The notes: generated by a model from the sequence alone, not told the origin. Counted from the first letter of the stretch, positions 7,298-39,177 are shown. The stretch is DNA of 64,000 nt from Actinomycetota bacterium (GCA_012523095.1 JAAYJE010000038.1:40244-104243); one strand, 5' to 3'. Translations and numbers: made by a program.

Positions 7298-7300
7298 ACT

Positions 7301-13849: not shown

Positions 13850-13852
13850 CTC

Positions 13853-17488: not shown

Positions 17489-20140
17489 ATGGCCAAAGGG
17501 GAACGCGCAAAGGTCGACGTGAGTGTCGACAAAACAACGATCAAGAACCTCGCGATGGGGGGCCTTTTGGGAGGAGGCGGCGAGTGCTTCGTGGATGTCA
17601 AAGATGGGAAAGCGATCCGTATCAGACCCTTCAAATACGACTGGAAGTGCGACTACGACTCGCTCAGACCGTGGAAGATCGAGCGTAACGGCGAGACGCT
17701 GCAGCCGCTGCCCAAGGCCTTGCCGGCCCCGTTCTCTCTCGCGTACAAGAAGAGGACCTTTTCCCCCAACCGTATCAAGTTCCCTTTGAAGCGGGTGGAC
17801 TGGGACCCGAATGGAGCACCCGGGTCCACCGGGCCCGGCGGCCGCAACACCCAGAACCGTGGCAAGAGCAAGTTCGTGAGGATCTCGTGGGACGAAGCCA
17901 TTGACCTTGTCGCCTCGGAGGTCAAGCGCGTCCATAAGGAATACGGCCCGCTCGCCATCCTGGCGCAGGGTGACGGCCACGGAGAGTGCAAGACCATCCA
18001 CACACCGCACGGCCATCAGGCCCGCCTGCTCGATATGATGGGGGGCTTCACGCAGCAGGTGCGCAACCCCGACAGCTGGGAGGGCTGGTACTGGGGCGCG
18101 AAGCACGTGTGGGGGCAGGGCTTCCAAGGCATGATGTCACCGGCGGCCAACCTCACCAAGGACATCTCCGAACACTCCACCATGGTCCTCAAATGGGGCT
18201 GCGACGAAGAGACCACGCCCTGGGGTTTCACCGGCCAGTATGCTACCCGCATCTCGCAGTTCTGGACGCGGGCCGGCATCAAGCAGGTGTATATCTGCCC
18301 CGACCTCAACTACGCCGCCGCCGTCCACGCCGACAAATGGATCCCGGTGCTCCCTAACACAGACGCCGCGCTCCAGCTGGCCATCATCTACGTGTGGCTG
18401 ACCGAGGACACCTGGGACAGAGAGTACGTCGAGACGCACGCGGTAGGCATGGACAAGGTGGCCGCCTACGTGCTGGGCGAGGACCAGGAGGGTATCCCCA
18501 AGACGCCTGAATGGGCCTCGAAGAGGTGCGGCGTGCCGGAGTGGACCATCAAAGCCCTGGCCCGCCAGTTCGCCAAGAACACCACATCCATCATCCACTA
18601 TTTCGGCGGCTCGGCTTTCCGGGGTCCATACTCACATGAGCCCGGCCGTCTGGAGTGCATCCTTCTCGGCATGCAGGGGCTCGGCAGACCAGGCGTTCAC
18701 CAGTGCCAGATGACGTACTTCGGTATGCCCCGCGCGGAGGGGTTGGGCAGCATCCGTTTCTTCAACCCTGAGTTGCCCGAGCGGCTCACGAAGCCCTGCT
18801 GGACCACGGTGCATTCGTGGGGTCCACAGCTCATCCCCAAGACACTCATCCAGGACGCCATCCTCAAACCACCCCTGGTATTCCACGGCGCCGGCGGCCA
18901 GGAGAGCCCGACCGAGGAGCAGTTCGACCGCTACACTTATCCCATCGCGAAGGAAAAGGGCGGCGTCCCCATCCACATGATCTGGACCGACACGCCCTGC
19001 CGCATCACCTGCTGGAACCACGGCAACTGGACCATCGAAGCTTTCAAGGATCCCAGCATAGAGTGTGTGGTCGCACAGCACCCGTGGATGGAGAACGAAT
19101 GCCTCTACGCCGACATCGTGTTACCGGCCAACACCACCCTCGAGGTGGAGGACATCGTCACCACCACCCGGCAGGGACCTCACTTCGCAAGCGTCTCCAT
19201 CCAGGAGCAGTCCATTCTGCCGATCGGCGAGTCGAAGAGCGACTACGAGATCGTGGCCGCCATCGCTGAAGAGCTGGGCTACGGCGAAGAGTTCACTGGG
19301 GACATGAGCACGTACGATCTCCAGAAGCTCGTGTTCGACAGCATGCACCTGGACAAGCTCACCACGTGGGAGGACTTCTACGAGAAGAAGACCTACGTGT
19401 ACAAGACGGCTCCCGACTGGGAGGACGACCCGCCCGGCTTGCGCAAGTTCTACGAGGATCCCAAGAACAACCCGCTCCCGACTCCGAGCGGCCTTCTGGA
19501 GTTCTATTCCGCTCGACTGGCCGAGCACTTCCCTGACGATAAGGAGCGGCCGCCGTTACCGAAGTGGATCGAGAAGGGCGTCACTCACGACGAAGCCCTG
19601 TCGAGCGAACGGGCGGCCATGTTCCCGCTGCTTCTGATCTCCAACCATCCGCGCTGGCGCACACACGCCCAGGGTGACGACAACAGCTGGGCCCGGGAGA
19701 CCCCTACCGGCAAGGTGCTGGGCTTCGACGGCTACAAGTACGAGCCTATCTGGATCAACCCTGTTGATGCTGATGAGCGTGGCATCAACGACGGCGACGT
19801 GGTCAAGATCTTCAACGAGCGTGGCGTCGTACTCGTCGGCGCCCGCGTCTGGGAGCGGATCAAACCCGGCGTGGTTTATGTAGACCACGGCGCCCGGCAT
19901 GACCCGCTGGTGCCGGGCAAGGTATGCCGCGGAGGCGCCATCAACACTATCGCCCCCAATGGGATCACCTCCAAGAACGCCGTCGGCCAGGCCACAAGTG
20001 GTTACCTGGTCGACGTGCAGAAGGTGAAGAACGAGGAATGGGAGGAGTGGCGTAGGGACCATCCCGAAGCCTTCGCACGGGTCTACGACCCGGGTGCCGG
20101 TTTACGCTTCGACGCATGGATCGAAGGAGGCGACAAATGA
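17489..20140 (+). CDS. Molybdopterin-dependent large (alpha) subunit of the transhydroxylase family, copy 2
   Basis: 883 aa with no Cys4 N-motif and no Tat signal. It shares NGAPGSTGPGGRN.QNRG, PDSWEGWYWG, GIPKTPEWA, VLPANTTLEVEDI and SDYEIVAAIAEELG blocks with copy 1. Confidence 0.8.
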   Translation: MAKGERAKVDVSVDKTTIKNLAMGGLLGGGGECFVDVKDGKAIRIRPFKYDWKCDYDSLRPWKIERNGETLQPLPKALPAPFSLAYKKRTFSPNRIKFPLKRVDWDPNGAPGSTGPGGRNTQNRGKSKFVRISWDEAIDLVASEVKRVHKEYGPLAILAQGDGHGECKTIHTPHGHQARLLDMMGGFTQQVRNPDSWEGWYWGAKHVWGQGFQGMMSPAANLTKDISEHSTMVLKWGCDEETTPWGFTGQYATRISQFWTRAGIKQVYICPDLNYAAAVHADKWIPVLPNTDAALQLAIIYVWLTEDTWDREYVETHAVGMDKVAAYVLGEDQEGIPKTPEWASKRCGVPEWTIKALARQFAKNTTSIIHYFGGSAFRGPYSHEPGRLECILLGMQGLGRPGVHQCQMTYFGMPRAEGLGSIRFFNPELPERLTKPCWTTVHSWGPQLIPKTLIQDAILKPPLVFHGAGGQESPTEEQFDRYTYPIAKEKGGVPIHMIWTDTPCRITCWNHGNWTIEAFKDPSIECVVAQHPWMENECLYADIVLPANTTLEVEDIVTTTRQGPHFASVSIQEQSILPIGESKSDYEIVAAIAEELGYGEEFTGDMSTYDLQKLVFDSMHLDKLTTWEDFYEKKTYVYKTAPDWEDDPPGLRKFYEDPKNNPLPTPSGLLEFYSARLAEHFPDDKERPPLPKWIEKGVTHDEALSSERAAMFPLLLISNHPRWRTHAQGDDNSWARETPTGKVLGFDGYKYEPIWINPVDADERGINDGDVVKIFNERGVVLVGARVWERIKPGVVYVDHGARHDPLVPGKVCRGGAINTIAPNGITSKNAVGQATSGYLVDVQKVKNEEWEEWRRDHPEAFARVYDPGAGLRFDAWIEGGDK

Positions 20141-20955
20141 AGGTCTTCGTCATCGATGTCGGCCTTTGTGTAGGCTGCTACGCCTGCCAGTTCGTCTGCA
20201 AGGACGAGCACGTGGGCAACGACTGGTCGCCGATCGCCAAGCCCCAGCCCGACACCGGCCAGTTCTGGATGCGGCTGGACGAACACATCCGCGGCACGGT
20301 CCCCAAGGTGGAGATGCATTACGTGCCGAACCCCTGCATGCACTGTGACGAGGCCCCCTGCATCCCGCCCTGCCCCATCGAGGGAGCCATCTATAAGCGC
20401 GACGACGGGCTGGTGATCATCGACTCGATGAAGTGTACGGGGTGTAGGTTATGTGTCGACGCCTGCCCCTACGACGCCATCTACTTCAACGACGACTTGA
20501 ATCTGGCCCAGAAGTGTACAGGCTGCGCCCATCTCCTCGACGGCGGTGAATGGATGGTCCCGCGCTGCGTCGACGCCTGTCCCACTGAGGCCATCAAGTT
20601 CGGTGAAGAGAGCGAGTTCGCTGCCGAGATAGCGAAGGCCGAAGTGCTGAAGCCCGAGCTGGGCCACAAACCGCGCGTCTATTACCTCAACATCCCGAAG
20701 AAGTTCATCGCGGGCACCGTATACGATCCGGTTGCTAAGGAGATCATCGAGGGCGCCACCTGCACGCTCACGAACGGCAACGACAAGGCCCTCACCGCCA
20801 CGACCGACGGCTTCGGCGACTTCTGGTTCCGGGGGCTCCCCGACGACGCCTCTTACAAGCTGAGCGTCTCGGCCCCGGGCTTCAGAACCAAGACGATGGA
20901 GGACATCCGCACCGAGAAAGACGTCAATCTAGGCGACATAGCGCTTGCCAAGTAA
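20137..20955 (+). CDS. Transhydroxylase-family small (beta) FeS subunit, copy 2
   Basis: ATG at 20137 overlaps the alpha stop (ATGA) with GGAGG 6 nt upstream; the track ORF starts earlier at 20116. Motifs MKVFVIDVGLCVGCYACQFVC, PCMHCDEAPC, CTGCRLCVDACPY, CTGCAH...CVDACPTEA, plus C-terminal GFGDFWFRGL...VNLGDIAL domain. Confidence 0.8.
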   Translation: MKVFVIDVGLCVGCYACQFVCKDEHVGNDWSPIAKPQPDTGQFWMRLDEHIRGTVPKVEMHYVPNPCMHCDEAPCIPPCPIEGAIYKRDDGLVIIDSMKCTGCRLCVDACPYDAIYFNDDLNLAQKCTGCAHLLDGGEWMVPRCVDACPTEAIKFGEESEFAAEIAKAEVLKPELGHKPRVYYLNIPKKFIAGTVYDPVAKEIIEGATCTLTNGNDKALTATTDGFGDFWFRGLPDDASYKLSVSAPGFRTKTMEDIRTEKDVNLGDIALAK

Positions 20956-21085: not shown

Positions 21086-22216
21086 TTACCTCGATCTTGC
21101 CGGGTCGGCGTCTATCAGGCCCTCGAGTCCGTGAGAGAGCTCCTGCAGCTTTCTGGCCTGCTCCTCCACCTCCCTGGTGGCTGCCACCGACTGCTTCTCC
21201 GCCTCGTTGATGCTGGACATGGCCTTGCCGATCTGCTCCACACCCGCCAGCTGTTGACCGCTCGCGGTGGAGATGTCCGTCGTCGCTTCGGCGGTCCTGG
21301 TCGCCGCCTCCATCCTCTCACTGATGTTCTCCAGAGCCTTGTTGGCTTCGAGCCTGCCCATCTCCACGGTCTCCCGACCCTGTTCCGCAGCCTGGACAAC
21401 CACGTCGCTGGCCTTCTGGATCTCGCCGAGGACCGCCCGCACCTGCGCGACCGCCTGTTTGGATTGCTCGGCCAGGCTCTTGACCTCTTGGGCGACCACG
21501 GTGAAGCCTTTGCCGGCCTCTCCGGCCTTGGCCGCTTCGATCGATGCGTTCACGGAGAGCAGATTGGATTGCTCGGCGATATCGTTGACCGTGGCGATTA
21601 CCTCTCCCACCGACTCGTTCTGCTCCTTCAGCCGATCTATGGCCTCCGCCACCACGCCCATATCGCGGTGTATCTGTTCGAAATGATCGAAGTTCCTTCT
21701 TGCCGACTCAGCACCGAATCTCGACTTCTCCACCACACTCTGTGAAACCTCCGAGGCCTCAGAAGCCTTCTCTCGGGTCAGCGCCGCCGTCTGCCTGACT
21801 TCTTCCACCGTGACCGTGGTCTCGTTCGTGGCTGTCGCCGTCTGCGCAGCCGCGGCCGCGACCTGCGACGAAACGGCCAGCAGTCCGGCCGCGGCCTCAG
21901 CGATACTGGTGACGGCGGCCCGAAGTCGGCGGCGGATCCCACGGCTGAGGGCCACGGTCCCCACGCCGCTCAGCGCCACCGCCACAGCCGCAAGAACAAC
22001 TATGGCGATCAAGAACACGGTGGCCGTGCCGTCCAGCGTGTCCAACATGCCTTGGAGTGTCTGATCCCCCGAGACTCCTGCCTGTCCGGCCGACTTGACG
22101 AAGTCCCCATGCCAAGACCTGACCCAGACCATGGCGCCGATGCCGACACCTGCCACCGCCAGCGTCAATACCAAGGGGCCGACCATCGCAGTCGTGATAC
22201 GCCGTCCGATCGTCAT
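21086..22216 (-). CDS. methyl-accepting chemotaxis protein (two TM helices, short periplasmic loop, MCP signalling domain)
   Basis: Conserved MCP signalling-domain core (..[32 protein letters not shown]..) and two hydrophobic segments near the N-terminus. ATG at 22216 with GGAGGA RBS; the track start at 22297 is rejected. Confidence 0.8.
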
Positions 22217-22417
22217 CTCACGTCCTCCCTCTCTTGCCCTCGACCCGCACCTTTGCTGGTCGTCAAGAGGCATGCCTCCTGCGTCTATTTCGTCCACGCA
22301 GGCCGATTTCCCCCAAGGACTTGCCTGCGCCCCAGGGTCCGGCCATCGAAACAGGTGCTGAAGACGACGAGGCGTCCGGAAGGAGTGATGCCTCTCCCCG
22401 TCCGTGTCGACGGACGT

Positions 22418-23233
22418 CTACCCCCAGCTTGAGCCGTATTGCCCGATCGCCGCCGCAAACGCGTCGATGAAGTGGACGCCTCCGTCGACGAGTATGGTGG
22501 ATCCGGTCATGAAGTTGGAGTCCTCACCGGCCAGGAATACGAACAACCCGGCGATATCAGTCGGAGTCGCGATGCGGTGCAGAGGCACGTGGCCGGCCAT
22601 GGTCGCGAAGACACCGTCCATGTCGGTGTTGAGGACCTCGGCCATCGGTTCGAAGTTGCTTTCAAGCATAGCCGTGCGCACCGGCCCCGGGCAGACCACG
22701 TTGCATCGCACGTTGTTCTTGCCGTAGTCGAGAGCCACCTGCTTGGTCAGATGGATCAGGCCGGCCTTGGTGGTGCAGTAGGCGGGTCCTCCGGGTACGG
22801 CCACCACTCCGGCCAGCGACGCCACGTTGATGATCGAGCCGCCTCCAGCCTTGGCCATCTCAGGGATGGCGGCCTTCATCATCAGGAAGGGGCCCGTCAG
22901 GTTCACCTCAAGCATCTGGCGCCAAGCCGCCGGGTCCATGTCGACAACCCCGGCGTTCATCTCGATAGCAGCGTTGTTGACCAAGATGTCGAGCCGCCCC
23001 GTGAAGCCGAGCGCCGCCTCGACCATCTTGCCGGCGTTGCCGTCCTCCGTCACGTCTCCGCAGAAGACCGTGACGCTGTCCGTGGGCAGTAACGCGGCCA
23101 CCTCGTCCAGCTTCTCTCTACGCCGACCCGTGATGACGATCTTGGCGCCTTCCTCCACGAAACGCTTCGCGACCCCCGCGCCGATGCCGGTGCCGCCGCC
23201 GGTGATGAGTGCGACCTTGTTTTCTAGTTGCAT
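22418..23233 (-). CDS. SDR family oxidoreductase
   Basis: NKVALITGGGTGIGAGVA, NNAA, YCTTKAG. ATG at 23233 with AAGGGGA RBS, 10 nt after the upstream MBL gene stop. Confidence 0.75.
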   Translation of the reverse strand: MQLENKVALITGGGTGIGAGVAKRFVEEGAKIVITGRRREKLDEVAALLPTDSVTVFCGDVTEDGNAGKMVEAALGFTGRLDILVNNAAIEMNAGVVDMDPAAWRQMLEVNLTGPFLMMKAAIPEMAKAGGGSIINVASLAGVVAVPGGPAYCTTKAGLIHLTKQVALDYGKNNVRCNVVCPGPVRTAMLESNFEPMAEVLNTDMDGVFATMAGHVPLHRIATPTDIAGLFVFLAGEDSNFMTGSTILVDGGVHFIDAFAAAIGQYGSSWG

Positions 23234-23243
23234 TGCCGTCCCC

Positions 23244-24170
23244 TTACTCTCTGGGCGGGTCACCGTCGAACCCGCCGTTTGGATTCAAGAATATCTTCCC
23301 AGGTTCGCCGGGAAGAGGGGTGAGCCAATCGGGGCTGCTGTGGGGAAAGAGCAACCTCGCCTGCCAGTGGATGGCAAAATCCTCCGCTTTCACGTCCCCA
23401 TAGTACCTCGCCATGCCCTCGACCAGGTCCGCCCCGGTCTTGGCGATGTTATACATCTCCTCGTAGACATCCAGGTAGCGCACCGACCAGTCGACGCAGT
23501 CGGTATAGGTGCGAGAGGTGTCCTCCTGCACATCCTCCAAGATGCGTAACTTGGCTTCGTCGCAGTGACCTGGGATGACGATGCGGGGGTCGAATTCCAG
23601 GAGCTTCTTGATAGAGGCCCTCCACTTGACCCGTCGCTCCACGTTGCTTTCGATGGGCCATAGGTGACAGTCGTGGAAGGCCACATCAGTCGCACACAGG
23701 ACCCGGATCGACGGCGCCCAGACCACGGAGTTGTTGACGCTGTCTCCCTCCCAGCCGTCCGACACCAGCAGTTCTTCGCCCTCCAGTTCGAGACGAGGCT
23801 CGTGCATGGGCATAGGGATGATGGTCTTCGGTGGAATATCCGGCCCAAAACGATCTATTGCCCACATATCCACCTTGTCGCTCGAGGTGAACACCACATC
23901 TCTCACCACGCTCGGCAGCGCCACGATCTTGGCGTGCGGGAACGCATGCGCAAGGACGCTCAGCCCGAAATGGTGGTCGGGATGGAAGTGAGAGACATAT
24001 ATATGGGTGAGGTTCTTCCTCATCGGGATGATCTCCGCGATCATCCTGTGGGTGTCGCTCAGCAATTGGGACGCGTCGACAAGGACGGCGTCGCGCTCCC
24101 CATAGAACAACGTGGAGTTGCTGTTGAAACCCAGGTAGCTGTGAAGAAACACGCGGTATTTCAGCGTCAC
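23244..24170 (-). CDS. MBL-fold metallo-hydrolase
   Basis: HxHxDH motif YVSHFHPDHHFG with downstream His/Asp ligands. GTG start with GGAAGGGG RBS. Confidence 0.7.
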   Translation of the reverse strand: MTLKYRVFLHSYLGFNSNSTLFYGERDAVLVDASQLLSDTHRMIAEIIPMRKNLTHIYVSHFHPDHHFGLSVLAHAFPHAKIVALPSVVRDVVFTSSDKVDMWAIDRFGPDIPPKTIIPMPMHEPRLELEGEELLVSDGWEGDSVNNSVVWAPSIRVLCATDVAFHDCHLWPIESNVERRVKWRASIKKLLEFDPRIVIPGHCDEAKLRILEDVQEDTSRTYTDCVDWSVRYLDVYEEMYNIAKTGADLVEGMARYYGDVKAEDFAIHWQARLLFPHSSPDWLTPLPGEPGKIFLNPNGGFDGDPPRE

Positions 24171-25201: not shown

Positions 25202-25990
25202 TCACACAAAGGCCATAGTCCCGCCGTCAGGATACAAGATGGTCCCGGTCACGAAGTCCGACGCGGCCGAGGCCAAGAAGACGGTCGGGCCGATGAGGTC
25301 GGGCACTGTGCCCATGCGGCCCATGGGCACATTCACAAGCATCTTCTCATAGCGGTCGGCTTCTCTGCGAACACGCTCCTCGGTCATGGGTGTGACGGTG
25401 ATTATCGGGGCGATGGCGTTCACCATGACCTTCTTCGAAGCCAATTCAACCGCCAACTGCTTCGTGAGCATGTCAACCGCGCCCTTGCTGGCGCAGTAAG
25501 CGAGATTGCCGCCCAGTGCGGCGCGCGCCCCACGTATCGAAGACAGATTGATGATCTTACCACCCCCGTGCTCAACCATGTGCTTCGCGAAGTGCTTGCA
25601 GCAGAGCATCACACCGCGGACGTTCACGCTGAAAAGATTGTCCCAATCTTCGAGAGGGAACTCCGTGGCCGGCGCCTTCACATTGAAACCCTGCGCGTTG
25701 ACGCCCACATGAATGCGGCCCATGTCTTCGACGGCGGCCGCGATTATCTCTTCGACGTTCTTCTCCTGGTCTTGGCCCGTCACCACCGGGTAGGTGAACA
25801 CCCTCTGCCCCGTGGTCGCGTGGATCTCTTCCACCGCGCTGTCGATGGCGTCCAGGTTGATGTCGGCGATACCCACCCGAGCGCCGAACACGACTAAACC
25901 CTGCGCCAACCCGCGCCCGATCCCGCCGGCGCCGCCCACCACCACGACATTCTTGCCTTTCAGGGAGAACAGGTCAGGCGATATTTCCAT
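25202..25990 (-). CDS. SDR family oxidoreductase; candidate phloroglucinol reductase-type enzyme
   Basis: GKNVVVVGGAGGIGRG, NAQG, YCASKGAV. First gene upstream of the IclR regulator and last of the HBD-like / BKACE / SDR operon. Confidence 0.7.
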   Translation of the reverse strand: MEISPDLFSLKGKNVVVVGGAGGIGRGLAQGLVVFGARVGIADINLDAIDSAVEEIHATTGQRVFTYPVVTGQDQEKNVEEIIAAAVEDMGRIHVGVNAQGFNVKAPATEFPLEDWDNLFSVNVRGVMLCCKHFAKHMVEHGGGKIINLSSIRGARAALGGNLAYCASKGAVDMLTKQLAVELASKKVMVNAIAPIITVTPMTEERVRREADRYEKMLVNVPMGRMGTVPDLIGPTVFLASAASDFVTGTILYPDGGTMAFV

Positions 25991-26067
25991 GGCCCTGCCA
26001 CCATCCTTTTTCCGTCAGATCTCGTTGCGAGGTTCCTGATCTTGTGAACTGTTGCATGCCGCTCACG

Positions 26068-26922
26068 CTACCGCTTCACAATGCCCAGCATCTGCCGGAC
26101 CTCGTCAGGGGTGGTGGGCTCTATGTTGAGCTCTCGAGCGATGCGGACCGACCGCTCCACCAACTGAGCGTTACTCTTCGCCAGCACGCCCCGCGAGTAG
26201 TAGATGTTGTCCTCGAGCCCCACTCGGATGGCGCCGCCCCTGATCATCGCCATGGTGGTGATAGGGAGTTGCGCGGCCGACGTCGCACAGCAGTTGAAGT
26301 AGCAGCCTTCGGGCAGGAATTCGATCATCGAATTGAGACTCTCGGGCGTCGCCTCCACCGCACCTTGGTACATCATGCCGAGTACGATGTTGACGTAGTA
26401 CGGCGGTTTGATGAGTTCCTTCTTGATGAGGTTGCTCACGTCCCGATACATGCTCTGCGAGTAGCACTCCATCTCGGGCTTGATGTCGAGTTCCCGCATC
26501 TTGGTCGCCCAAGCCTCGATGTCCTTGGTGAGGTTCGAGAATGGAGTGCCGGCGAATTCGCCCGTCTGCCGCATGAGCGTCCCCATGTTGAGCGAGGCCG
26601 ATTCAGGTTTGGCGTCAAGGCAGCGCACCCGCTCCTCGATGGTGAGGTTGGCTCCCCCGCCGGTAGAGAACTGGATGATGATGTCGCCGCATCTGCCCCG
26701 GACCGCCGCCAGTATCTCTTCGAACTTCTCTTTGGTGCCGGTAGGCTTGCCCTTCTCATCGCGGGCGTGGATGTGCACTATGGAGGCCCCGGCGTTGTAG
26801 CATTCAAGCGCAGCCTGGGCAATCTCCGCCGGCTGTTCGGGGACGTTAGGGTTCATATCTTTGGTGACCATCGCCCCGTTCAGCGAAGCGGTGACGATGA
26901 CCTTGCCGGCGGGCAGTTTCAT
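26068..26922 (-). CDS. BKACE family (beta-keto acid cleavage enzyme, DUF849 TIM barrel) protein; candidate triacetate acetoacetate-lyase type
   Basis: KVIVTASLNGAMVTKDMNPNVPEQPAEIAQAALECYNAGASIVHIHARD and later GGGANLTIEER, RVGLEDNIYY blocks are typical of 3-keto-5-aminohexanoate-cleavage-enzyme-like proteins. AGGAG RBS. Confidence 0.75.
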   Translation of the reverse strand: MKLPAGKVIVTASLNGAMVTKDMNPNVPEQPAEIAQAALECYNAGASIVHIHARDEKGKPTGTKEKFEEILAAVRGRCGDIIIQFSTGGGANLTIEERVRCLDAKPESASLNMGTLMRQTGEFAGTPFSNLTKDIEAWATKMRELDIKPEMECYSQSMYRDVSNLIKKELIKPPYYVNIVLGMMYQGAVEATPESLNSMIEFLPEGCYFNCCATSAAQLPITTMAMIRGGAIRVGLEDNIYYSRGVLAKSNAQLVERSVRIARELNIEPTTPDEVRQMLGIVKR

Positions 26923-26930
26923 GGTTGCTC

Positions 26931-27890
26931 CTATATCTTCTCGTAGATGAGGTCTTTGACGTCCTCGAAGACCTTGATGAGTGCGGCGTCGCGTTCTCGT
27001 AGCACCTGCTCCAGGGGACGATCGGTGTAGTCGAAGAAACCCTTGCCCGTCTTCACGCCCAGGTCGCCCGCCTCCATGAGTTCTTTCAGACTCTTGGGCT
27101 GATTGTCGATGGGCGCCTCTACGAAGTCAGGGTTCTGTAGGTTCCCATAGCTGAGGTCGATGCCCGTGAAGTCGTATCGCTGGACGAATCCAAGCACCAT
27201 AGCCCGAGGAATGATGCTGGCCTTGACGGCGAGATCGAGTTGCTCGGCGGTCATGTACCCGTTGTCGAGGAGGAAGAAGATCTCTCGTCCTATGATGCGC
27301 AGAAAGCGGTTGATGCAGAATCCGGGAACGAACTTCTCGAGCACCGTGGGGACCCTCTCCACCTTCTTCAGGAATCCCACCACGAAATCGACAGTGGTCT
27401 GCGCCGTCTCCGGCCCCTTGACCACTTCGACGAGCGGCACTATGTGCGGAGGGGCGAACCAGTGGGCTATCAAGGTCCGGGGCAGACGCTTGACCGGCAT
27501 GATCTCGTAGATGTTGAGGTAGGAGGTATTGCTGGTGATTATGGTCCGCTCGGGACAGACGGCGTCGAGAGCCTCGTAGAGCTCCTTCTTCGCGTCCATA
27601 TTCTCGGCGATGGTCTCTATGACGAAATCGGCGTTCTCGCCCGCCTCTTCCACCGATTGGGTCGTCCTGACGCGGGCCAACACCCTCGGCACCGCGCTCT
27701 CAGCAAGGAGCTCGTTCTCGACGAAGGTCGCGAGATTTGCCTGGGCCACCCTCATCGCCTTGTCGAGAGTCTCAGCCTTGCGCGAATACATCGTCACGTC
27801 GTATCCAGCGGTGGCGAACACCTGAGCAAGGCCGGGACCCATAGTGCCGGCTCCAAAGATGGCAACTTCCTTCACGTCAGCCAGTTCCAC
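26931..27890 (-). CDS. 3-hydroxyacyl-CoA dehydrogenase family protein (HBD-like); candidate 3-hydroxy-5-oxohexanoate dehydrogenase type
   Basis: VKEVAIFGAGTMGPGLAQVFATAGYDV Rossmann start and HCDH C-domain. About 50 % identical by eye to 575-1516. GTG start with GGAGG RBS. Its stop overlaps the BKACE RBS. Confidence 0.75.
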   Translation of the reverse strand: MELADVKEVAIFGAGTMGPGLAQVFATAGYDVTMYSRKAETLDKAMRVAQANLATFVENELLAESAVPRVLARVRTTQSVEEAGENADFVIETIAENMDAKKELYEALDAVCPERTIITSNTSYLNIYEIMPVKRLPRTLIAHWFAPPHIVPLVEVVKGPETAQTTVDFVVGFLKKVERVPTVLEKFVPGFCINRFLRIIGREIFFLLDNGYMTAEQLDLAVKASIIPRAMVLGFVQRYDFTGIDLSYGNLQNPDFVEAPIDNQPKSLKELMEAGDLGVKTGKGFFDYTDRPLEQVLRERDAALIKVFEDVKDLIYEKI

Positions 27891-28094
27891 GCGAGTCCTC
27901 CCTGCCCTCGTCCTTCTCCAAGCTAAGTATGATCGGTCCTGGTATCAGTATACCGCGATACATAGATGAAATATCGAGTTTGGGAGATATGAGCGGCATC
28001 TCAGCCGTCTCTGGAGATCCCGCCGGCCCGGGGCATGCGGGCGTGGGTCCGTTGAAGACGCCGCCCATCTTGAAAATCGACCAGCCCTAGTCTA

Positions 28095-28133
28095 CGATAT
28101 CGCTGATATTACTCAATAATATCGCGATATCGT
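28095..28133. promoter_or_regulatory. 39-bp conserved operator-like motif, copy B, in the divergent promoter region between the phloroglucinol-type operon and the third molybdoenzyme operon
   Basis: acgatatcgctgatattactcaataatatcgcgatatcg is the reverse complement partner of 16454-16492. It contains the inverted repeat CGATATCGC...GCGATATCG. Confidence 0.45.
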
Positions 28134-28269
28134 AACTGTCTTTGTTTAGGCCTTTGCCGGTGTCGGCGATCTCAAGCTGGAGAAACGACGTCCGCACCGG
28201 CGACAATGAAAGGGGTGCCCTGATGGCAGCATCGAAGGCTTCTTGGCACAGCGAAGGGAGAACCGCATC

Positions 28270-29037
28270 ATGAGATGGGGGATGGTCATCAACCTCGCGA
28301 AGTGCACCCGGTGCCACGCATGCGTCGCCGCCTGCAGAATAGAGCATTTCCTGCCGCTCAGGATCACCTGGCCCAGACTGATCGCACTGGAGGTGGACGA
28401 CGGCGTCACGGTGGACGTCTCGACCTACCCGGTGCGCTGCAACCAGTGCCAAGAGGCGCCCTGCGTGGAGGTCTGCCCGACTGAGGCTTCATATAAGAGA
28501 GAGGACGGGATCGTCGCCATCGACTCCGACAAGTGCTTCGGATGCCGGTACTGCGTCATCGCGTGCCCTTATCAGAACCGCACGTATCTTTCCAGGAGAA
28601 GGAACGTCAACTACTTCCCCGAGCACGCCAAGACGAGCTTCGAGAAGAAGGGCAAGAAGCTCTATCCACACGTGGTGGGAACCACCGAGAAGTGCAACTT
28701 CTGTATGGAGCGTATCGACGCAGGCATGGCGAAGGGTCTGAGGCCGGGCATCGACCGCGAAGCAACCCCAGCCTGCGTGAACATCTGCCAGGCCAGGGCT
28801 CTGACTTTCGGCGATTTGGACGACCCTAACAGCAACGTTTCCGAACTGATCCGCGAGAAGAACGGGTTTGTGCTTCACGCTGAGTACGGCACGGAGCCTT
28901 CCGTCTATTACATCGATTACAAGATCGGTAGAGCTCCCTCGAACAAGGCTCCCATCGAGGCTCAGACGGGCAGCCACATACAGCACCTGAGCACTGTCTA
29001 CGGCCCGTCCAAAGAAAAACTCGCCAAGAAGTACTAG
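28270..29037 (+). CDS. 4Fe-4S ferredoxin-type electron-transfer (beta) subunit of a DMSO-reductase-family oxidoreductase (PsrB/TtrB/DmsB-like); no Tat signal
   Basis: Four Cys clusters: CTRCHACVAAC, CNQCQEAPCVEVCP, CFGCRYCVIACP, CNFC...C. ATG at 28270 with AAGGGAG RBS; the track start at 28243 is rejected. Confidence 0.8.
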   Translation: MRWGMVINLAKCTRCHACVAACRIEHFLPLRITWPRLIALEVDDGVTVDVSTYPVRCNQCQEAPCVEVCPTEASYKREDGIVAIDSDKCFGCRYCVIACPYQNRTYLSRRRNVNYFPEHAKTSFEKKGKKLYPHVVGTTEKCNFCMERIDAGMAKGLRPGIDREATPACVNICQARALTFGDLDDPNSNVSELIREKNGFVLHAEYGTEPSVYYIDYKIGRAPSNKAPIEAQTGSHIQHLSTVYGPSKEKLAKKY

Positions 29038-29055
29038 ACAGGGAGCGAAGAGAGC

Positions 29056-30012
29056 ATGAACGCAAGAACCTCACGTCAATGGATGGTCACCCACGAGTGG
29101 ATGGTCAAACCCATGGGCCAGGTCGAGTGGATCCAAGGGAAGGGTCTCCTGGTGTGGCTGGCGGAGGTCTTCTCCGCCCTAGGAACCGGTCTATACCTGG
29201 TGGCGCTCTTCTTTACCCAGTCGCATCCGCTCACCGCCTTCTGGGCCGGGCTCTTCGGCTGGATAGGGATCGCCATCTTCAAATTACCCTTACACTTCCT
29301 CTACCTCGGGAAGCCCTGGCGCTTCTGGAGAGCTTTTCCGCCGGTAAGTGGCGCATGGAGGACCTCGTGGTTCGCACGGGGCATCGTCTTCACAATGATC
29401 TTTTTGGCCTGCGGCGCCGTGCAATTGATAATGATCGGGCTGATGGGCTACGGCAAAGGTAACGTCAGCATAGAGGTGATCAACTGGATCTTCATGGTCT
29501 TGGCCGGCCTCACCGGCGTGGTCACCGCCATCTACTGCGGTTTCGCGATGAGTTACTGCAAGAGCGTGCCATTCTGGAACACCGGCCTGCTGCCGTTCGT
29601 GTTCCTTATCATGGGCGTCGCCGACGGTCTGGCACTGATCATGGGTGTCGCCCTCGGCACCGGCGAACAGCTCATCGCCACTGCGGAAGCGGCCACACGC
29701 ATCTTGCTCATCGTCAACGCGCTGCTGATCATCATGTACCTGGTGAATGCGAACTACCAGTCGAGCACGGCTGAGCTGTCGGCGCGAGAACTCGTGCGTG
29801 GACACATGGCCTGGGTCTTCTGGCTGGGGATCGTGGTGTTCGGCATCGTCATCCCCTTCGTGATCGCCGTGATCGGAGCCGCTACTCATGTGCCGACCGG
29901 GTTGCTGATCTTTGCCGTTGTCAGTCACACCATCGGAGCGTTCTCGCTGAAGTACGGCGTGCTCAAGGTAGGCATCTACAGGCCACTTCTTCCCAAGGCG
30001 CAGGCCTACTAG
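29056..30012 (+). CDS. NrfD/PsrC-type polytopic membrane anchor subunit
   Basis: 318 aa with eight or more hydrophobic helices. The position between the FeS and catalytic subunits matches Ttr/Srd-type B-C-A operons. Confidence 0.7.
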   Translation: MNARTSRQWMVTHEWMVKPMGQVEWIQGKGLLVWLAEVFSALGTGLYLVALFFTQSHPLTAFWAGLFGWIGIAIFKLPLHFLYLGKPWRFWRAFPPVSGAWRTSWFARGIVFTMIFLACGAVQLIMIGLMGYGKGNVSIEVINWIFMVLAGLTGVVTAIYCGFAMSYCKSVPFWNTGLLPFVFLIMGVADGLALIMGVALGTGEQLIATAEAATRILLIVNALLIIMYLVNANYQSSTAELSARELVRGHMAWVFWLGIVVFGIVIPFVIAVIGAATHVPTGLLIFAVVSHTIGAFSLKYGVLKVGIYRPLLPKAQAY

Positions 30013-30041
30013 GGCGCCCGGGTTAGGTTGAGGAGACACTG

Positions 30042-32282
30042 ATGGCAAGAGAAGTCATATATTCAACGTGTAAGAGCTGCCACGGCGGCTGCGGCGTCAA
30101 AGTCACCAAGGAAGACGGGGTCGTCATCCACATCGAGGGCAACCCCGACTCTCTAACTGCGGGCACCATGTGCTCGAAAGGTCTCTCGAGCATCCAGCAT
30201 ATCGATAACCCTTACCGCCTCAAGTACCCCATGAAACAGGTGGGCAAGAAGGGTCACGGCAAGTGGAAGAGGATCTCCTGGGACGAGGCGCTGGACACCA
30301 TCGCCGAGAAGATGAAGGAGGCGATCAAGGATCCGGGGCCTCACAGCATCGCCATCTCCCAAGGCACGGGGCGCGGTTACAACCGCTACACTATGCGCAT
30401 GGCGCGCTCCCTGGGCACCGGAAACGCGATCACGCCCGGTTATGTATGCCACAGCCCCCGCCTGGGCCTTTACGCCCTCGTGACCGGCTATGGCCGCCTC
30501 TACTGCGACTACCACGGCTGGGGCGGCGAGTTCCCCAAGACCCAGATCATGTGGGCGAAGCAGCTGGAGATATCGAGCGCCGACTCCGAGATGTGCTACT
30601 GGTACATGAACTCCCTCGACTACGTCAAGAACCTCATCATCATCGACCCGCGGGCCAGCGCCTACGCCACCCGCGCAGGTCTCTGGATCCAACCCCGGCC
30701 GGGCACCGACTGCGCTCTGGCCCTGGGCATGGGCCACGTCATCATCGAGGAAGAGTTGTGGGACAAGGACTTCGTTGAGAACTGGACCTTCGGCTTCGAC
30801 GACTACCGAGAATGCGTCAAGGAGTGGACGCCGGAGAAGGTCTCCGACGTCTGCTGGATACCCAAGGAACAGGTCATCGAGGCCGCCCGCATGTGGGCGA
30901 TCGACACGCCCGGCTGCATCCAGGTGGGTAGCTCGCTCGAGCGACAGGCCAACTGCGGTTACACGATCAGAGCAATCACCTGTCTCATGGGACTGGCCGG
31001 CAACATCGAACGGCCGGGTAGCATGATCAGCTGGGTACTGCCGGACACCGGCCTCATCGAAGACTTCAACCTCGAGCTCCCCATCACCGATGAGATGAAG
31101 GCCAAGATCATCGGCGGCGACCGGTTCAAGATGGGCGCAACCCGTACCTGCAACCCCGACACCATGGTCAAGGCCATCAACTCCGGCAATGCCCCCATCC
31201 GAGTCTGGTTCAGCGTGGGCGGGCAGCAGATCTTGCACATGGCCAACACCAAGGAAGTCGTGGAGGCCATCGAGAAGGTCGAATTCATGGCTCACGCCGA
31301 TCAGTTCATGGGTCCCATGGCCGAAGCCGCAGACATAGTGCTGCCGGCCGCCCACTGGCTGGAGCTGGACGACGTCTACGATATGCACCCCCGTTTCATG
31401 ATCGAAGCCCACAACAAGGTGGTCGACCCGCCGGGCGAGGCCAGATCCGACGCATGGATCTTCAACGAGATAGGTAAGAGGGTCGTGCCCGACAAGTGGT
31501 GGGACAGCGTGGATGACATGCTCGACTACCAGCTCAGACGCGGTGAGTCCAAAGACGGCGGCCCACTCAAGTGGAACGAGTTCGCCGAGAAACTGGTCAG
31601 CGGATGTTGGGGCCCCGACCAGGTGTACTACAAGTACAAGACCGACTTCTGGAAAGAGGGCGGCGGTTTCCCGACTCCGTCGGGCAAGTTCGAGTTCCGA
31701 TCCCAGCACCTGGAATCGCTGGGGTACGATGGGCTGCCGGTTTACAATGAGCCCGGAGAGAGCCCTTACTCGACTCCCGAGCTGTTCAAGGAATACCCTA
31801 TCGTGATGAGTAGCGGATTCCGGCAACCCTGGTACTTCCTCGGGCAGTATCGCAACATCCCCTGGCTCCGGAGTTTCATGGAGTTTCCAACCGCCCAGCT
31901 CCATCCGGAGACCGCTAAGCTGTACGATGTGGAAGACGGCGACATCATCTGGATCGAATCCCCCAGGGGCAGGATCCGACAGAAGCTCCGTTGCTTCCCA
32001 GGCATCAAGAAGGGTGTCCTGATGGCGACGGCCAACTGCTTCTATCCGGAGGAACCACCCGAAGGCTACCACGGCTTGTTCATCTCCAACCCGAACGTAC
32101 TCACCAGCAACGACCACCTCGACCCCATGTACGGGTCACCCGACCTCACCTGCCTGATCTGCAAGGTGTACAAGGCCAAGGATGAGGAACTGACCGAGGA
32201 GGTCTTCCGGAGCGAGGAGTACGGGTTCGTGCCGGAGAGCATCGGAGCGACCGAACCCAAGGTGAAGAAGGACGACGACTAG
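30042..32282 (+). CDS. molybdopterin (bis-MGD) oxidoreductase catalytic subunit with N-terminal [4Fe-4S] Cys motif; no twin-arginine signal
   Basis: N-terminus MAREVIYSTCKSCHGGCGVKV...C (CxxCxxxC...C MopB FeS-0 motif). 746 aa with molybdopterin-binding and C-terminal MopB_CT-like regions. GAGGAG RBS. Confidence 0.85.
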   Translation: MAREVIYSTCKSCHGGCGVKVTKEDGVVIHIEGNPDSLTAGTMCSKGLSSIQHIDNPYRLKYPMKQVGKKGHGKWKRISWDEALDTIAEKMKEAIKDPGPHSIAISQGTGRGYNRYTMRMARSLGTGNAITPGYVCHSPRLGLYALVTGYGRLYCDYHGWGGEFPKTQIMWAKQLEISSADSEMCYWYMNSLDYVKNLIIIDPRASAYATRAGLWIQPRPGTDCALALGMGHVIIEEELWDKDFVENWTFGFDDYRECVKEWTPEKVSDVCWIPKEQVIEAARMWAIDTPGCIQVGSSLERQANCGYTIRAITCLMGLAGNIERPGSMISWVLPDTGLIEDFNLELPITDEMKAKIIGGDRFKMGATRTCNPDTMVKAINSGNAPIRVWFSVGGQQILHMANTKEVVEAIEKVEFMAHADQFMGPMAEAADIVLPAAHWLELDDVYDMHPRFMIEAHNKVVDPPGEARSDAWIFNEIGKRVVPDKWWDSVDDMLDYQLRRGESKDGGPLKWNEFAEKLVSGCWGPDQVYYKYKTDFWKEGGGFPTPSGKFEFRSQHLESLGYDGLPVYNEPGESPYSTPELFKEYPIVMSSGFRQPWYFLGQYRNIPWLRSFMEFPTAQLHPETAKLYDVEDGDIIWIESPRGRIRQKLRCFPGIKKGVLMATANCFYPEEPPEGYHGLFISNPNVLTSNDHLDPMYGSPDLTCLICKVYKAKDEELTEEVFRSEEYGFVPESIGATEPKVKKDDD

Positions 32283-32968: not shown

Positions 32969-34429
32969 CTACGCTTCTGTCTGGCGGCGTGCCTCATCAG
33001 GTGTGACGGGTGGTTTCGACGCCGTGCTGCGGTTGCACCTCTCGGCGGTCCATCCCGTCTCGCGGAGAAAAGCCGCCAGCACCGTCCCCACGAGAAACAC
33101 GCCGGCGGCCAGCAGGTAGGAGTACTTGAGCGAGCCGAAAGCATCGGCCATCAGACCGGCCGCGTACGGTCCGAGAACTTGCCCCACCCCTATGAAGATC
33201 GTGACGAAACCCAGAGAGGCGGAGGCTAGAACGGGACCGAACTGGTCGCCGCAGCCGGCTCCGACAATGCCGGGCACCGCGACTGCGGTGAGCCCACAAA
33301 GAACGGCCGAGATCATAAGTCCCGGCGTGGTCGGACACCAGGCGAAGAGGGCCGCCGAGACGGCCTGGAGCAGGCAACTGATGCCGATGGCCCGCCCTCG
33401 TCCGATGCGGTCGGAGATGCTGCCCCAGATGAAGCCGGCGGCGATGCTCATCACCCCCAGGGCAAGGAAGAACCTGCCCGCGGACTGAGCACTGAGGCCC
33501 AAGTCGACGGTAAGACGCCTTTGGAAGAACGTGAAGTAGATCATGTAGGCAAAGCCGAACATGAAGTAAACGAAGCCCATATGCCAGGCGTAGCGGGAGC
33601 GGTAGACTTTCCGCAGGTCAAACGGGATCGGCGCAGTCCGCGGCGCGGGCGCGGGCGCCGGCGACCAGCTCGCCAGCGTAGCCGCCAGGGCCACCTCGTT
33701 GCCCTTACCGGCCTCGCCTTTGGCCGTCTCGGCCTCCCAGATCGATCCCTTCATGACAGGAGTATGCGCCGAGCGGTCCGGACGATTACGCTGGATGATG
33801 AACGTCAGAACCCCCACGGCTAGAGTCAAGGCAGCGAAGAAGTACCAGGCAAGACGCCACCCCTCGGCTCCGCCGCCCTCTATGATGCGCGGAACGACAG
33901 GCCCCGTGATCACCAAGGCAAGTGACGAACCTGATGAGACCACACCCGAGGCCATGCCCCGCCGGCGGATATCGAACCATGCCGACATCAGCGCCACCGA
34001 GGGCACCAGCACCATGCCGCTGCCCACCCCGGTAAGGAGACGGGCCGCGGAAGCCGCCACCACGCCATTGGAGAGCCCTGTGGCCGCCATCCCCAGGGCC
34101 GCCACCACCGAACCCACCCCTACAACTATGCGGGGGCCGAACCTGGAAGCCAGGATACCCCCGACGGCCGCCATCAGTACGTACCCGCCCAGGTTCCAAG
34201 AAGCGAGCGAACCGGCGGCGGCGCTGCTGATACCCAGATCGTCCTGCATGGCCGGCAGGATGGCGCTGTAGCCGAAGCGACCGAAACCCAGTGCGCCGAA
34301 CACGGCCAAGAAACCCATGGCCAGCACCACCCATCGATACGAAGGGCGTTGGGTGAGCCGCCGCGATCCGGCGCGGGGGCCGCCGGCCGGAGGAGTCACC
34401 TTCGGAGACGAGTCAGCCGCTGTCAACAC
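32969..34429 (-). CDS. MFS transporter (oxalate/formate-antiporter-like subfamily)
   Basis: Twelve predicted helices and an MFS signature region. GTG start 3 nt after the IorB stop; the start is uncertain. Confidence 0.7.
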   Translation of the reverse strand: MLTAADSSPKVTPPAGGPRAGSRRLTQRPSYRWVVLAMGFLAVFGALGFGRFGYSAILPAMQDDLGISSAAAGSLASWNLGGYVLMAAVGGILASRFGPRIVVGVGSVVAALGMAATGLSNGVVAASAARLLTGVGSGMVLVPSVALMSAWFDIRRRGMASGVVSSGSSLALVITGPVVPRIIEGGGAEGWRLAWYFFAALTLAVGVLTFIIQRNRPDRSAHTPVMKGSIWEAETAKGEAGKGNEVALAATLASWSPAPAPAPRTAPIPFDLRKVYRSRYAWHMGFVYFMFGFAYMIYFTFFQRRLTVDLGLSAQSAGRFFLALGVMSIAAGFIWGSISDRIGRGRAIGISCLLQAVSAALFAWCPTTPGLMISAVLCGLTAVAVPGIVGAGCGDQFGPVLASASLGFVTIFIGVGQVLGPYAAGLMADAFGSLKYSYLLAAGVFLVGTVLAAFLRETGWTAERCNRSTASKPPVTPDEARRQTEA

Positions 34430-34432
34430 ACA

Positions 34433-35047
34433 CTACCGGGTAGAGCAATCCGTGTCGGATGTGGAGGCACCGGCGGCGCCCAGCCGGAAGGCTTCGAGGT
34501 TCACTTCGACGGTCTTGGGCGGCACCGCCTTACGGATCACCTCTTCCCAGGTTCCGAGCGCAAAGGGAAGAGTGGACGAGATGGCGCCCAGCATTGCTAC
34601 GTTGGCCGCCTTCACGGTACCCGCCTTGGCGGCCAACTCATTGGCGTTCACACACTTGGTGTTGGGCCAAGCCGCCCTGATGAGGCCGTCCACGTCGTCG
34701 GGATAGGAGGCGAGTCCGGCCGAGACCGGGCTGGGGTTGATGCGCAGGGCGTTATAGACGAGCACACCTCCCGGCTTCAGCCAATGTACATAGCGTAATC
34801 CTTCCAGAGCCTCGAAGGCCATGAGGAGATCAGCCGTACCCTCAGGCACCAACGGCGACCAGACTTTGTCGCCGAAGCGGAAGTGGCTGGTGACGCTACC
34901 ACCGCGCTGGGCCATGCCGTGCACCTCGCTCTGCTTCACATCGTAGCCCTCGCTCATGGCGACGTGGCTCAACACGAAACTGGCGAGGACGACTCCTTGA
35001 CCCCCAACGCCGGTGAGTAGTACGTTCATGGTCGGGCGGGCGGTCAT
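34433..35047 (-). CDS. iorB: indolepyruvate/2-oxoacid:ferredoxin oxidoreductase subunit beta (IorB-type)
   Basis: NVLLTGVGGQGVVLAS...SEVHGMAQRGGSV...GTADLLMAFE pattern. ATGA overlap with the IorA stop. Confidence 0.8.
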   Translation of the reverse strand: MTARPTMNVLLTGVGGQGVVLASFVLSHVAMSEGYDVKQSEVHGMAQRGGSVTSHFRFGDKVWSPLVPEGTADLLMAFEALEGLRYVHWLKPGGVLVYNALRINPSPVSAGLASYPDDVDGLIRAAWPNTKCVNANELAAKAGTVKAANVAMLGAISSTLPFALGTWEEVIRKAVPPKTVEVNLEAFRLGAAGASTSDTDCSTR

Positions 35048-36891: not shown

Positions 36892-36902
36892 ATCTCCTCC
36901 GC

Positions 36903-39080: not shown

Positions 39081-39177
39081 GCAGTTACTCACACCCCTTT
39101 GGCTCCTCGCGGATCCCTCGTCGAGCCGGCCCTTTCGCACGCCCACGGCGATGCTAGGTTGTTTGAATGTCCATATG

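Follow-up and report, generated by a model that had tools for sequence, protein, structure and literature searches.

An operon of dehydrogenase, lyase and reductase genes

When tannins and flavonoids are mineralised without oxygen, they are funnelled through phloroglucinol. Here we analyse three genes that probably encode part of such a route in a 64-kb stretch of DNA from an Actinomycetota bacterium (hereafter the window). All three lie on the minus strand. The first encodes an HBD-family NAD(P)-dependent 3-hydroxyacid dehydrogenase that resembles TfD (27890-26931; 319 aa from a GTG start; Pfam 3HCDH_N with 178 bits and 3HCDH with 48 bits), the second a BKACE (DUF849) beta-keto acid cleavage enzyme that resembles TAL (26922-26068; 284 aa; Pfam BKACE with 308 bits over profile positions 1-274 of 274), and the third a classical short-chain dehydrogenase/reductase (SDR), the candidate phloroglucinol reductase (25990-25202; 262 aa; Pfam adh_short_C2 with 179 bits). 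Directly 3' of this trio, and on the same strand, follows the gene of an IclR-family regulator (25155-24322; HTH_IclR and IclR_C). A listing of open reading frames returned exactly the coordinates that a preliminary description of this DNA had claimed for the trio, and the Pfam matches bear out the families named there, including that of the regulator.

The window has a G+C content of 59-66% and is identical or near-identical to contigs of anaerobic-digester assemblies. It corresponds to part of the 142.5-kb JGI metagenome contig Ga0239563_000076, window positions being contig positions minus 41059. About 150 loci were fetched for comparison and are designated by L-numbers; L091 and L157 denote the contig flanks of the window. 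The nearest named relative of the window BKACE is found in the metagenome-assembled genome (MAG) 'Actinobacteria bacterium RBG_16_64_13' (locus L093).

The genes are closely packed. As the preliminary description had noted, the stop codon of the HBD gene and the ribosome-binding site of the BKACE gene overlap: the TAG runs into an AGGAG motif 5 nt before the BKACE ATG (...ATAGGAGCAACCATG), and the gap between the two genes is 8 nt. Longer gaps separate BKACE from SDR (77 nt) and SDR from IclR (46 nt). We compared metagenome and MAG loci with a BKACE of at least 68% identity. In 32 of the 35 with enough flanking sequence the HBD gene is the immediate upstream neighbour of BKACE, and in 38 of 40 an orthologous SDR gene is the immediate downstream one; the gene order is therefore not accidental, and about 40 metagenome loci show it as a whole. 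In most related loci the trio is flanked by an IclR gene, which lies upstream in one arrangement (type A) and downstream in another (type B), both of which are described below.

Scans of the operon region for promoters, terminators, Rfam families and tRNAs gave nothing above background, the only two tRNAs being far off. Some 50 nt before the HBD start, an alignment of the upstream regions of the window, L093, L097, L098 and L110, which is otherwise divergent, contains one invariant block, its most conserved part, which is the inverted repeat GGTATACTGATACC (27941-27954, minus strand). This repeat contains TATACT and is a candidate for both the -10 element and the IclR operator. Further upstream, in the intergenic region between the trio and a divergent molybdoenzyme operon, there is an inverted repeat whose 11-nt arms match perfectly (TACGATATCGC / GCGATATCGTA, spaced by 20 nt; 28093-28134), which is also kept in L098 and L110 and is likely to be a regulator-binding site.

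A four-enzyme route for phloroglucinol, whose enzymes are PGR, DPGC, TfD and TAL, was defined in 2023 in Clostridium scatologenes (Zhou et al., mBio, PMC10470551). PGR is an SDR that uses NADPH and carries a conserved TR(S/N) motif, whereas DPGC (dihydrophloroglucinol cyclohydrolase) is a Mn2+-dependent ring-opener of the 'cyclase' family that is related to isatin hydrolase. TfD, an HBD-family protein, lacks Lys56 and Asn221 of Hbd and retains His138, Ser117 and Asn188, and TAL is a BKACE with Trp16 in place of Glu14 of the lysine-pathway enzyme Kce (PMC10470551). Genes of this pathway, together with pgthAB, have already been reported as widespread in MAGs of many phyla (PMC10470551; bioRxiv 10.1101/2024.10.22.619724).

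The strongest evidence that ties the window trio to this route is synteny, and it goes beyond what the preliminary description had at hand. Type-A loci read IclR-HBD-BKACE-SDR-thiolase-cyclase-cyclase, and their products are 74-79% (BKACE), 64% (HBD), 57-62% (SDR) and 70-75% (thiolase) identical to those of the window. Both cyclases belong to PF04199; the second is 35-39% identical to CsDPGC and has the HxGTHxDAPxH metal motif as well as the Trp of the IPxWP substrate motif. The families present in the type-A operon are thus precisely those of the cluster characterised in C. scatologenes (PMC10470551). Type-B loci, to which the window belongs together with L093, L097, L098, L101, L122, L128 and L130 (83-100% identical), read HBD-BKACE-SDR-IclR-MBL-SDR2 and usually stand beside genes for the transhydroxylase subunits AthL and BthL. 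The two architectures are bridged by L109, from a 518-kb sediment contig with a BKACE 83% identical to that of the window, in which a chalcone-isomerase-domain protein, an S15 hydrolase, two cyclases, an aldehyde:ferredoxin oxidoreductase (AOR), an Fe-ADH, an IclR regulator, the trio and two AthL/BthL pairs are all encoded.

Transhydroxylase genes had also been placed beside the trio in the preliminary description, and here the sequence match is strong. The large subunit of a pyrogallol-phloroglucinol transhydroxylase, orthologous to AthL, is encoded at 13853-16402 (minus strand; 849 aa; Pfam AhtL-like_1st) and reaches 868 bits over residues 7-849 against the Pelobacter acidigallici structure 4V4C, the next-best structure scoring 257 bits. 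Its BthL-like Fe-S small subunit, a 4Fe-4S dicluster protein, is encoded directly 3' (13010-13849, minus strand). A second, more distant AthL-like molybdoenzyme, a paralogue of 883 aa, lies on the plus strand at 17489-20140 (403 bits against 4V4C; Pfam AhtL-like_1st), again with the gene of an Fe-S partner (20116-20955, plus strand; NCBIfam Fe-S subunit families; Pfam Fer4_11 and CarboxypepD_reg). Directly behind the first AthL-BthL pair follows an acetoacetyl-CoA thiolase gene (11663-12895, minus strand; NCBIfam acetyl-CoA C-acyltransferase, 466 bits) whose product shares 70-75% identity with the thiolases encoded in L006, L009 and L010. The orthologue of the type-A operon thiolase has thus been retained and, in the window, forms a transhydroxylase-thiolase unit (11663-16402).

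Taken together, it seems probable to us that the trio constitutes an IclR-controlled operon of an uncultured anaerobic actinobacterium and serves as a divergent version of three steps of anaerobic phloroglucinol degradation. The sequence shows the structure of the genes, the families they belong to, their residue patterns and a conserved synteny, and the proposal draws on these. We envision a route that would begin with the conversion of pyrogallol to phloroglucinol by AthL/BthL (13010-16402), for which the sequence match is strong. From its context, the SDR (25202-25990) may then reduce phloroglucinol to dihydrophloroglucinol, probably with NADH. The ring would next be opened to 3-hydroxy-5-oxohexanoate by a hydrolase that is not encoded in the region, most likely a DPGC encoded elsewhere. 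Diagnostic residues and context suggest that the HBD-family enzyme (26931-27890) could oxidise the free 3-hydroxy-5-oxohexanoate to triacetate, and that the BKACE (26068-26922) could convert triacetate and acetyl-CoA into acetoacetate and acetoacetyl-CoA. Finally, judging by homology and by the orthologue's position in type-A operons, the relocated thiolase (11663-12895) would split acetoacetyl-CoA into acetyl-CoA.

How does this scheme relate to the systems studied so far? With the C. scatologenes cluster the window shares the families for three of the four steps (SDR, HBD and BKACE) and the thiolase partner; the loss of CoA-binding residues in the HBD-family enzyme, the replacement of Kce Glu14 by a hydrophobic residue and the presence of DPGC-like cyclases in related actinobacterial operons are common features as well. 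In Pelobacter, triacetate is activated to triacetyl-CoA and then cleaved thiolytically, and both redox steps use NADP(H). The window differs from this organism in having a BKACE, as in the Clostridium-type route, and an SDR that looks NAD-dependent. What the window shares with Pelobacter acidigallici (Brune and Schink; 4V4C) is AthL with an Fe-S subunit and the overall logic, in which pyrogallol is turned into phloroglucinol, reduced, ring-opened and converted to acetyl-CoA units. The lower-pathway genes of Pelobacter were not available for comparison (PMC10470551).

Residue patterns of the three enzymes

As a reference for the residue patterns, we used 80 genome loci (L011-L090) around close DPGC homologues. 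A comparison with characterised PGR, TfD and TAL, as proposed in the preliminary description, confirmed the families and some of the diagnostic residues, but it did not reveal a close relationship, the identities being only 28-46%. The assignments of the trio consequently rest on context and on a few diagnostic residues.

The HBD-family enzyme was aligned with TfD and Hbd sequences that had been machine-read from the supplement of PMC10470551. It retains the catalytic residues Ser123, His143 and Asn194, which align with Ser117, His138 and Asn188 of Hbd. At the column of Hbd Lys56, a CoA contact, it has no Lys ('ENELLA'), and the region of Hbd Asn221, another CoA contact, is replaced by an insertion of three residues that includes Arg229 ('SIIPRAM'). 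TfDs carry the same insertion and read 'FGLRLP' at this place, Hbd reading 'GAN-HP'. Overall, it is 34% identical to CsTfD, 31% to C. butyricum Hbd and 28-37% to 66 DPGC-linked TfDs; for the HBD genes of the reference DPGC loci themselves, identity to the TfDs from Cs, Er and Fp is 55-88%. To the HBD gene of the cyclase-containing operons, the window enzyme is 64% identical. The predicted reaction is the oxidation of (S)-3-hydroxy-5-oxohexanoate to triacetate.

In the BKACE, an alignment with 2Y7D places conserved residues at the Zn ligands of Kce (His46, His48 and Glu230) and at Glu143, Arg226 and Asp231, which, in addition to Glu14, we take to be the key positions of the Kce structure. The preliminary description had allowed for the possibility that the enzyme carries the substrate-binding residues of Kce. 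For the amine-binding residue this is not the case: Met18 stands in place of Glu14, and the column is occupied by F, M, L or I in all 120 closest homologues. Since this Glu is replaced by Met, the window BKACE is, as judged by its residues, not a lysine-pathway Kce. In the DPGC-linked BKACEs the same column holds Trp in 57 of 63 and Ile in five of 63, and in the Chloroflexi DPGC loci the BKACE has Ile rather than Trp there. The identity of the window BKACE to the 63 DPGC-linked TALs is 32-46%, and that to Kce, 37%, falls in the same range. Its flanking genes are those for the TfD-like enzyme and the SDR; DPGC is not among the genes of the window, but it is part of the orthologous operons of L006, L009, L010, L117 and L119-L121 and is found 5 kb away in L109.

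Profile scores have to be read with care. Among NCBIfam models, the window BKACE scores 292 bits (291.9) with Lys_ferment_KCE (cut-off 382), 209 with the TAL model NF053538 (cut-off 430) and 196 with a 3-oxoadipate model. A canonical clostridial TAL (L011 13500-14345) shows a similar profile with 316, 218 and 230 bits on the Kce, TAL and 3-oxoadipate models, respectively. The best match of the window BKACE to the Kce model therefore means little, because the canonical TAL scores even higher there; this TAL, too, has its best score on the Kce model, though below the cut-off. Likewise, NF053538 ('3,5-dioxohexanoate:acetyl-CoA acetone transferase') was discarded as a discriminator of TALs, the canonical enzyme failing it as well with 218 bits against a cut-off of 430. 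A corollary is that automated pipelines are expected to annotate TALs as Kce.

The SDR has the catalytic residues Ser150/151, Tyr165 and Lys169. Of the 80 reference loci, 64 carry a canonical SDR whose identity to the PGR crystal structure 5G4K is 50% or more. A second and seemingly unrelated SDR lineage, only 31-36% identical to 5G4K, occupies the PGR slot directly upstream of near-identical DPGC genes in 13 of the 80 (Dehalococcoidia, Klebsiella, Kosakonia and Martelella). It is to this second lineage beside canonical DPGC, from Chloroflexi and Proteobacteria, that the window SDR and its orthologues are nearest (36-46%; 36-43% for the window SDR in one comparison). Across all SDRs in PGR position the identity of the window SDR is 28-44%, and to canonical PGR it is 31-33%. 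Within the cyclase-containing type-A operons its orthologues, 57-62% identical, are the sole SDR.

Points against, the ring-opening step and alternative readings

Several observations weigh against a role of the trio in phloroglucinol degradation. Identity to the characterised enzymes is low (28-46%), and in a rough neighbour-joining tree, in which the DPGC-linked BKACEs fall into at least three clades, the window clade is separate from them. The pocket residue at the Kce Glu14 position is Met (Phe in some relatives) and not the Trp of TAL. The SDR reads I41-A-D43-I-N45 where 5G4K and the 64 canonical PGRs have TGR(S/N); Asp43 predicts the use of NAD(H) rather than NADPH, at odds with the NADPH-dependent reduction expected in the preliminary description; some SDR orthologues keep an NADP-type residue (AAR in L010). 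Among the PDB matches of the SDR, 5G4K takes only about the 25th place with 114 bits, the best match, 1VL8, reaching 142, and by sequence the enzyme is no closer to 5G4K than to generic SDRs of the gluconate/KduD type. Neither overall identity nor the best PDB match proved informative for assigning the SDR, given that 5G4K, the window SDR and these generic SDRs score 110-140 bits with one another. Moreover, L094 has an HBD-BKACE-thiolase arrangement without SDR or cyclase, which implies that the core module is not always tied to ring reduction.

Other observations concern the ring-opening enzyme. A tblastn search that used the Cs, Er and Fp DPGCs as well as actinobacterial cyclases as queries detected no cyclase-family gene in the window, and a profile HMM run against all six-frame open reading frames of the window gave a best cyclase E-value of 1.1 (1e-128 for L109 as a positive control). 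Nor is there a cyclase in the contig flanks of about 10 kb on the left and 8 kb on the right (L091 and L157), and hence none within about 82 kb. The other type-B loci, four of which were covered by tblastn and HMM, also have no cyclase within 10 kb of the trio. With no cyclase gene in the region, the pathway as encoded here is incomplete. In this the window differs from the C. scatologenes cluster, as it does in the position of its thiolase behind the transhydroxylase genes and in the IclR-MBL-SDR2 genes that follow the trio.

The assignment of the trio to the TfD, TAL and PGR types, tied to transhydroxylases, thus stands as far as type-A synteny, the bridging locus L109 and the residues of the BKACE and the HBD-family enzyme carry it; close orthology and the NADPH motif of PGR are the parts that do not hold. 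As for the hydrolase, we consider a cyclase-family DPGC elsewhere in the genome the most likely solution. Cyclase genes need not adjoin the trio, because those of L109 form a separate unit 5 kb away, and in other related loci both a cyclase gene and an MBL gene are missing from the surroundings.

Among the alternatives, the one that survives best is that the trio is a generic module, which turns a 3-hydroxy acid into a beta-keto acid and this into acetoacetate and an acyl-CoA, and which, in this lineage without a cyclase, has been shifted to another polyphenol-derived substrate in conjunction with MBL-SDR2, with a Psr-like Mo/NrfD/Fe-S complex, or with both. Such a shift would fit the IclR-MBL-SDR2 genes that type-B loci have in place of thiolase-cyclase-cyclase, the Psr-like operon (28243-32282) that is syntenic with the trio in at least seven loci, the Met or Phe in place of Trp in the pocket and the module of L094, which has neither SDR nor cyclase; pairs of HBD and BKACE are also common for other substrates, such as carnitine. 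However, orthology between the trio proteins of type A and type B is clear (64-79% identity), and the two types cannot be told apart by their diagnostic residues, L093 being of type B and yet having Phe. An operon-type thiolase and a bona fide AthL orthologue are still in the island, L109 bridges both architectures, and in the two other phyla that were examined the MBL gene shows no linkage to genes of this kind. We therefore regard a change of substrate as unlikely, if by no means negligible.

Less probable, in our view, is a replacement of the cyclase-family hydrolase in this lineage by an unrelated metal hydrolase, either the MBL-fold protein (23244-24170) or an M24 protein (2417-3664). The preliminary description had correctly put the ring-opener outside the operon and had named M24 and MBL proteins as candidates for it. 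The characterised enzyme is neither, because DPGC belongs to the cyclase family (PMC10470551), and we found no evidence that links either protein to the step. If such a replacement had occurred, it would represent a new kind of retro-Claisen C-C hydrolase and would explain why other genomes have PGR and PgthAB but no DPGC, as has been described for SAR116 (bioRxiv 10.64898/2026.07.17.739263).

The MBL-fold metallo-hydrolase (minus strand; Lactamase_B, with an HFHPDH motif) follows the IclR gene in eight type-B loci, where MBL and SDR2 occupy the place that thiolase-cyclase-cyclase have in the related operons. SDR2 (22418-23263, minus strand; adh_short_C2 with 214 bits; 237 bits on the NCBIfam glucose 1-dehydrogenase subfamily model, cut-off 215) has an NADP-type TGRRR motif, and its gene is tightly coupled to the MBL gene, with which it co-occurs in type-B loci; in public assemblies its start is set at 23233. 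It is only 25-33% identical to the SDRs in PGR position. Orthologues of the MBL protein, 79-87% identical, are found in Actinobacteria, Chloroflexota, Thermodesulfobacteriota and Acidobacteriota, and the gene is conserved beside the trio only within type B. In both of the other contexts examined (L158 and L159: a Dehalococcoidales MAG and a Thermodesulfobacteriota genome), orthologues of about 80% identity stand alone among unrelated genes. The family forms one tight cluster at 50%, with its next full-length relatives at most 47% identical and no characterised member. No close relative turned up among solved structures, and the AF2 model (pLDDT 94) has its nearest Foldseek matches in a Burkholderia MBL protein that is itself uncharacterised and in B1 beta-lactamases. 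As a replacement hydrolase, the protein has nothing but local synteny in its favour. Because its linkage to the trio is confined to type B, its other contexts are unrelated and its structure matches are uninformative, an involvement in the pathway is speculative.

The M24 protein (minus strand) matches NCBIfam models weakly (DddP with 95 bits, PepQ with 89 bits), and about 150 fetched loci yielded no homologue except in the same operon. This second catabolic operon (575-8287, minus strand) encodes TetR, a FadB-like protein, a thiolase, the M24 protein (creatinase/prolidase fold), SDR4 and HBD2, the M24 gene lying between paralogues of the trio's SDR and HBD genes. The operon continues in L091 (7639-17555), where its genes code for an OYE/BaiCD-like flavoenzyme, for proteins resembling SnoaL (SnoaL_4) and HpaB/AbfD, for an ADP-forming acyl-CoA synthetase and for an ABC transporter. 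SDR4 is a paralogue of the trio SDR (42%) and HBD2 one of the trio's HBD-family enzyme (45%). SDR4 is 44-45% identical to the alternative SDRs of the PGR slot and thus as near to them as the trio SDR, and HBD2 has a TfD-type insertion ('LGVRLP'). The second operon may encode a CoA-dependent route of ring reduction and cleavage with the M24 protein as its hydrolase.

Other genes that recur near the trio offered no obvious candidate for the hydrolase. In L006, L009, L010, L097, L106, L109 and L130, these are genes for an aldehyde:ferredoxin oxidoreductase, an AlaDH/PNT-family protein and a class-III aminotransferase, and in L098 and L128 there are two glycyl-radical enzymes with an activase.

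A further alternative, which we rate slightly lower still, is that the operon is a remnant whose ring hydrolase has been lost, so that the organism would perform only a partial conversion or would cross-feed on the ring-opened products of its neighbours. The lack of DPGC in about 82 kb of contig and near the trio of other type-B loci would be consistent with this, and so would the combination of PGR and pgthAB without DPGC in SAR116 (bioRxiv 10.64898/2026.07.17.739263). Against this reading speaks the strong conservation of the trio, whose identity is 83-100% in many contigs of type B and their relatives, recovered from different samples, and which has intact open reading frames with coupled translation signals. 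The cyclases of L109, 5 kb away in a separate unit, argue that adjacency is not required, and the absence of a gene from a genome is more than MAG and contig data can establish.

That the BKACE is a lysine-pathway Kce acting on 3-keto-5-aminohexanoate, or a dehydrocarnitine cleavage enzyme paired with carnitine dehydrogenase, is very improbable: its best NCBIfam model is indeed Lys_ferment_KCE and class-III aminotransferase genes recur some kb away in several related loci, but the 292 bits remain below a cut-off of 382 and below the 316 bits of canonical TAL, the residue at Glu14 effectively refutes Kce, no kdd, kal or kam-type genes are present in the operon, and the carnitine dehydrogenase models reach 99-110 bits against 191 for the best HBD-family model. 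Kce shares the fold, the Zn site and the type of reaction (beta-keto acid and acetyl-CoA giving acetoacetate and acyl-CoA) with the window BKACE, at 37% full-length identity and 180 bits; what sets them apart is the Glu14 to Met exchange, the score below the NCBIfam cut-off for Kce and a gene context without lysine fermentation. According to a survey of the BKACE family (Bastard et al. 2014), pairs of an HBD-family dehydrogenase and a BKACE reportedly serve other substrates, one example being L-carnitine dehydrogenase with the dehydrocarnitine cleavage enzyme. These pairs follow the same two-gene logic, in which a free 3-hydroxy acid is first oxidised in an NAD(P)-dependent reaction and the beta-keto acid is then cleaved with the aid of CoA, but the window differs from them in the low scores of the carnitine dehydrogenase models (99-110 bits) and in its context of polyphenol rather than quaternary-amine catabolism.

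If the trio does act on phloroglucinol and its products, then the chemistry of its three genes is already known. New are the divergent actinobacterial lineage, the fusion with transhydroxylase genes, the NAD-type reductase and the architecture without DPGC. As the proposed chemistry is known, only the emergence of a new hydrolase would make the finding more than incremental. It nonetheless describes a distinct and widely distributed actinobacterial lineage, from digesters, bioreactors and sediments, in which reductase, dehydrogenase and lyase genes are joined to pyrogallol transhydroxylase genes. Standard annotation labels the trio 'lysine-fermentation Kce', '3-hydroxybutyryl-CoA dehydrogenase' and 'SDR', and surveys of polyphenol turnover that rely on close clostridial homology or on DPGC as a marker will consequently miss this lineage. 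The absence of the known ring-opener from the region also raises a testable question, namely what opens the ring in these organisms.

Neighbouring genes

Between the two transhydroxylase-like pairs lies the gene of a second IclR-family regulator (16502-17362, plus strand; NCBIfam pcaR/pcaU-type IclR, 127 bits). A methyl-accepting chemotaxis protein is encoded between SDR2 and the second AthL-like pair (21086-22297, minus strand); it may be a chemoreceptor for polyphenols, and no such gene is found at that position in L093.

Divergently from the trio runs the operon of the Psr-like complex (28243-32282, plus strand), whose products are a 4Fe-4S protein, a membrane protein of the NrfD type and a molybdopterin oxidoreductase of 746 aa. 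The latter starts directly at its Cys motif and has no obvious Tat leader, and the operon is Psr/Phs-like rather than AthL-like. Its synteny with the trio extends to at least seven related loci, with about 85% identity in L108 and L114. One guess is that it takes part in a quinone-linked (de)hydroxylation of polyphenols.

Beside this molybdoenzyme operon, a group of minus-strand genes (32969-39146) encodes an MFS transporter, a pair resembling indolepyruvate/2-oxoacid:ferredoxin oxidoreductase (POR gamma and a TPP enzyme) and an ADP-forming acyl-CoA synthetase of 747 aa. The synthetase could conserve ATP from acetyl-CoA, a role in the fermentation of aromatic amino acids being equally possible. 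For the protein encoded at 62932-63669, a look-up returned no record. At the right end of the window (59529-63207) and in the adjoining flank (L157 6500-12600), tRNA-Thr and tRNA-Met genes, a phage-type integrase gene and several small open reading frames give the appearance of a small integrated element that is unrelated to the trio.

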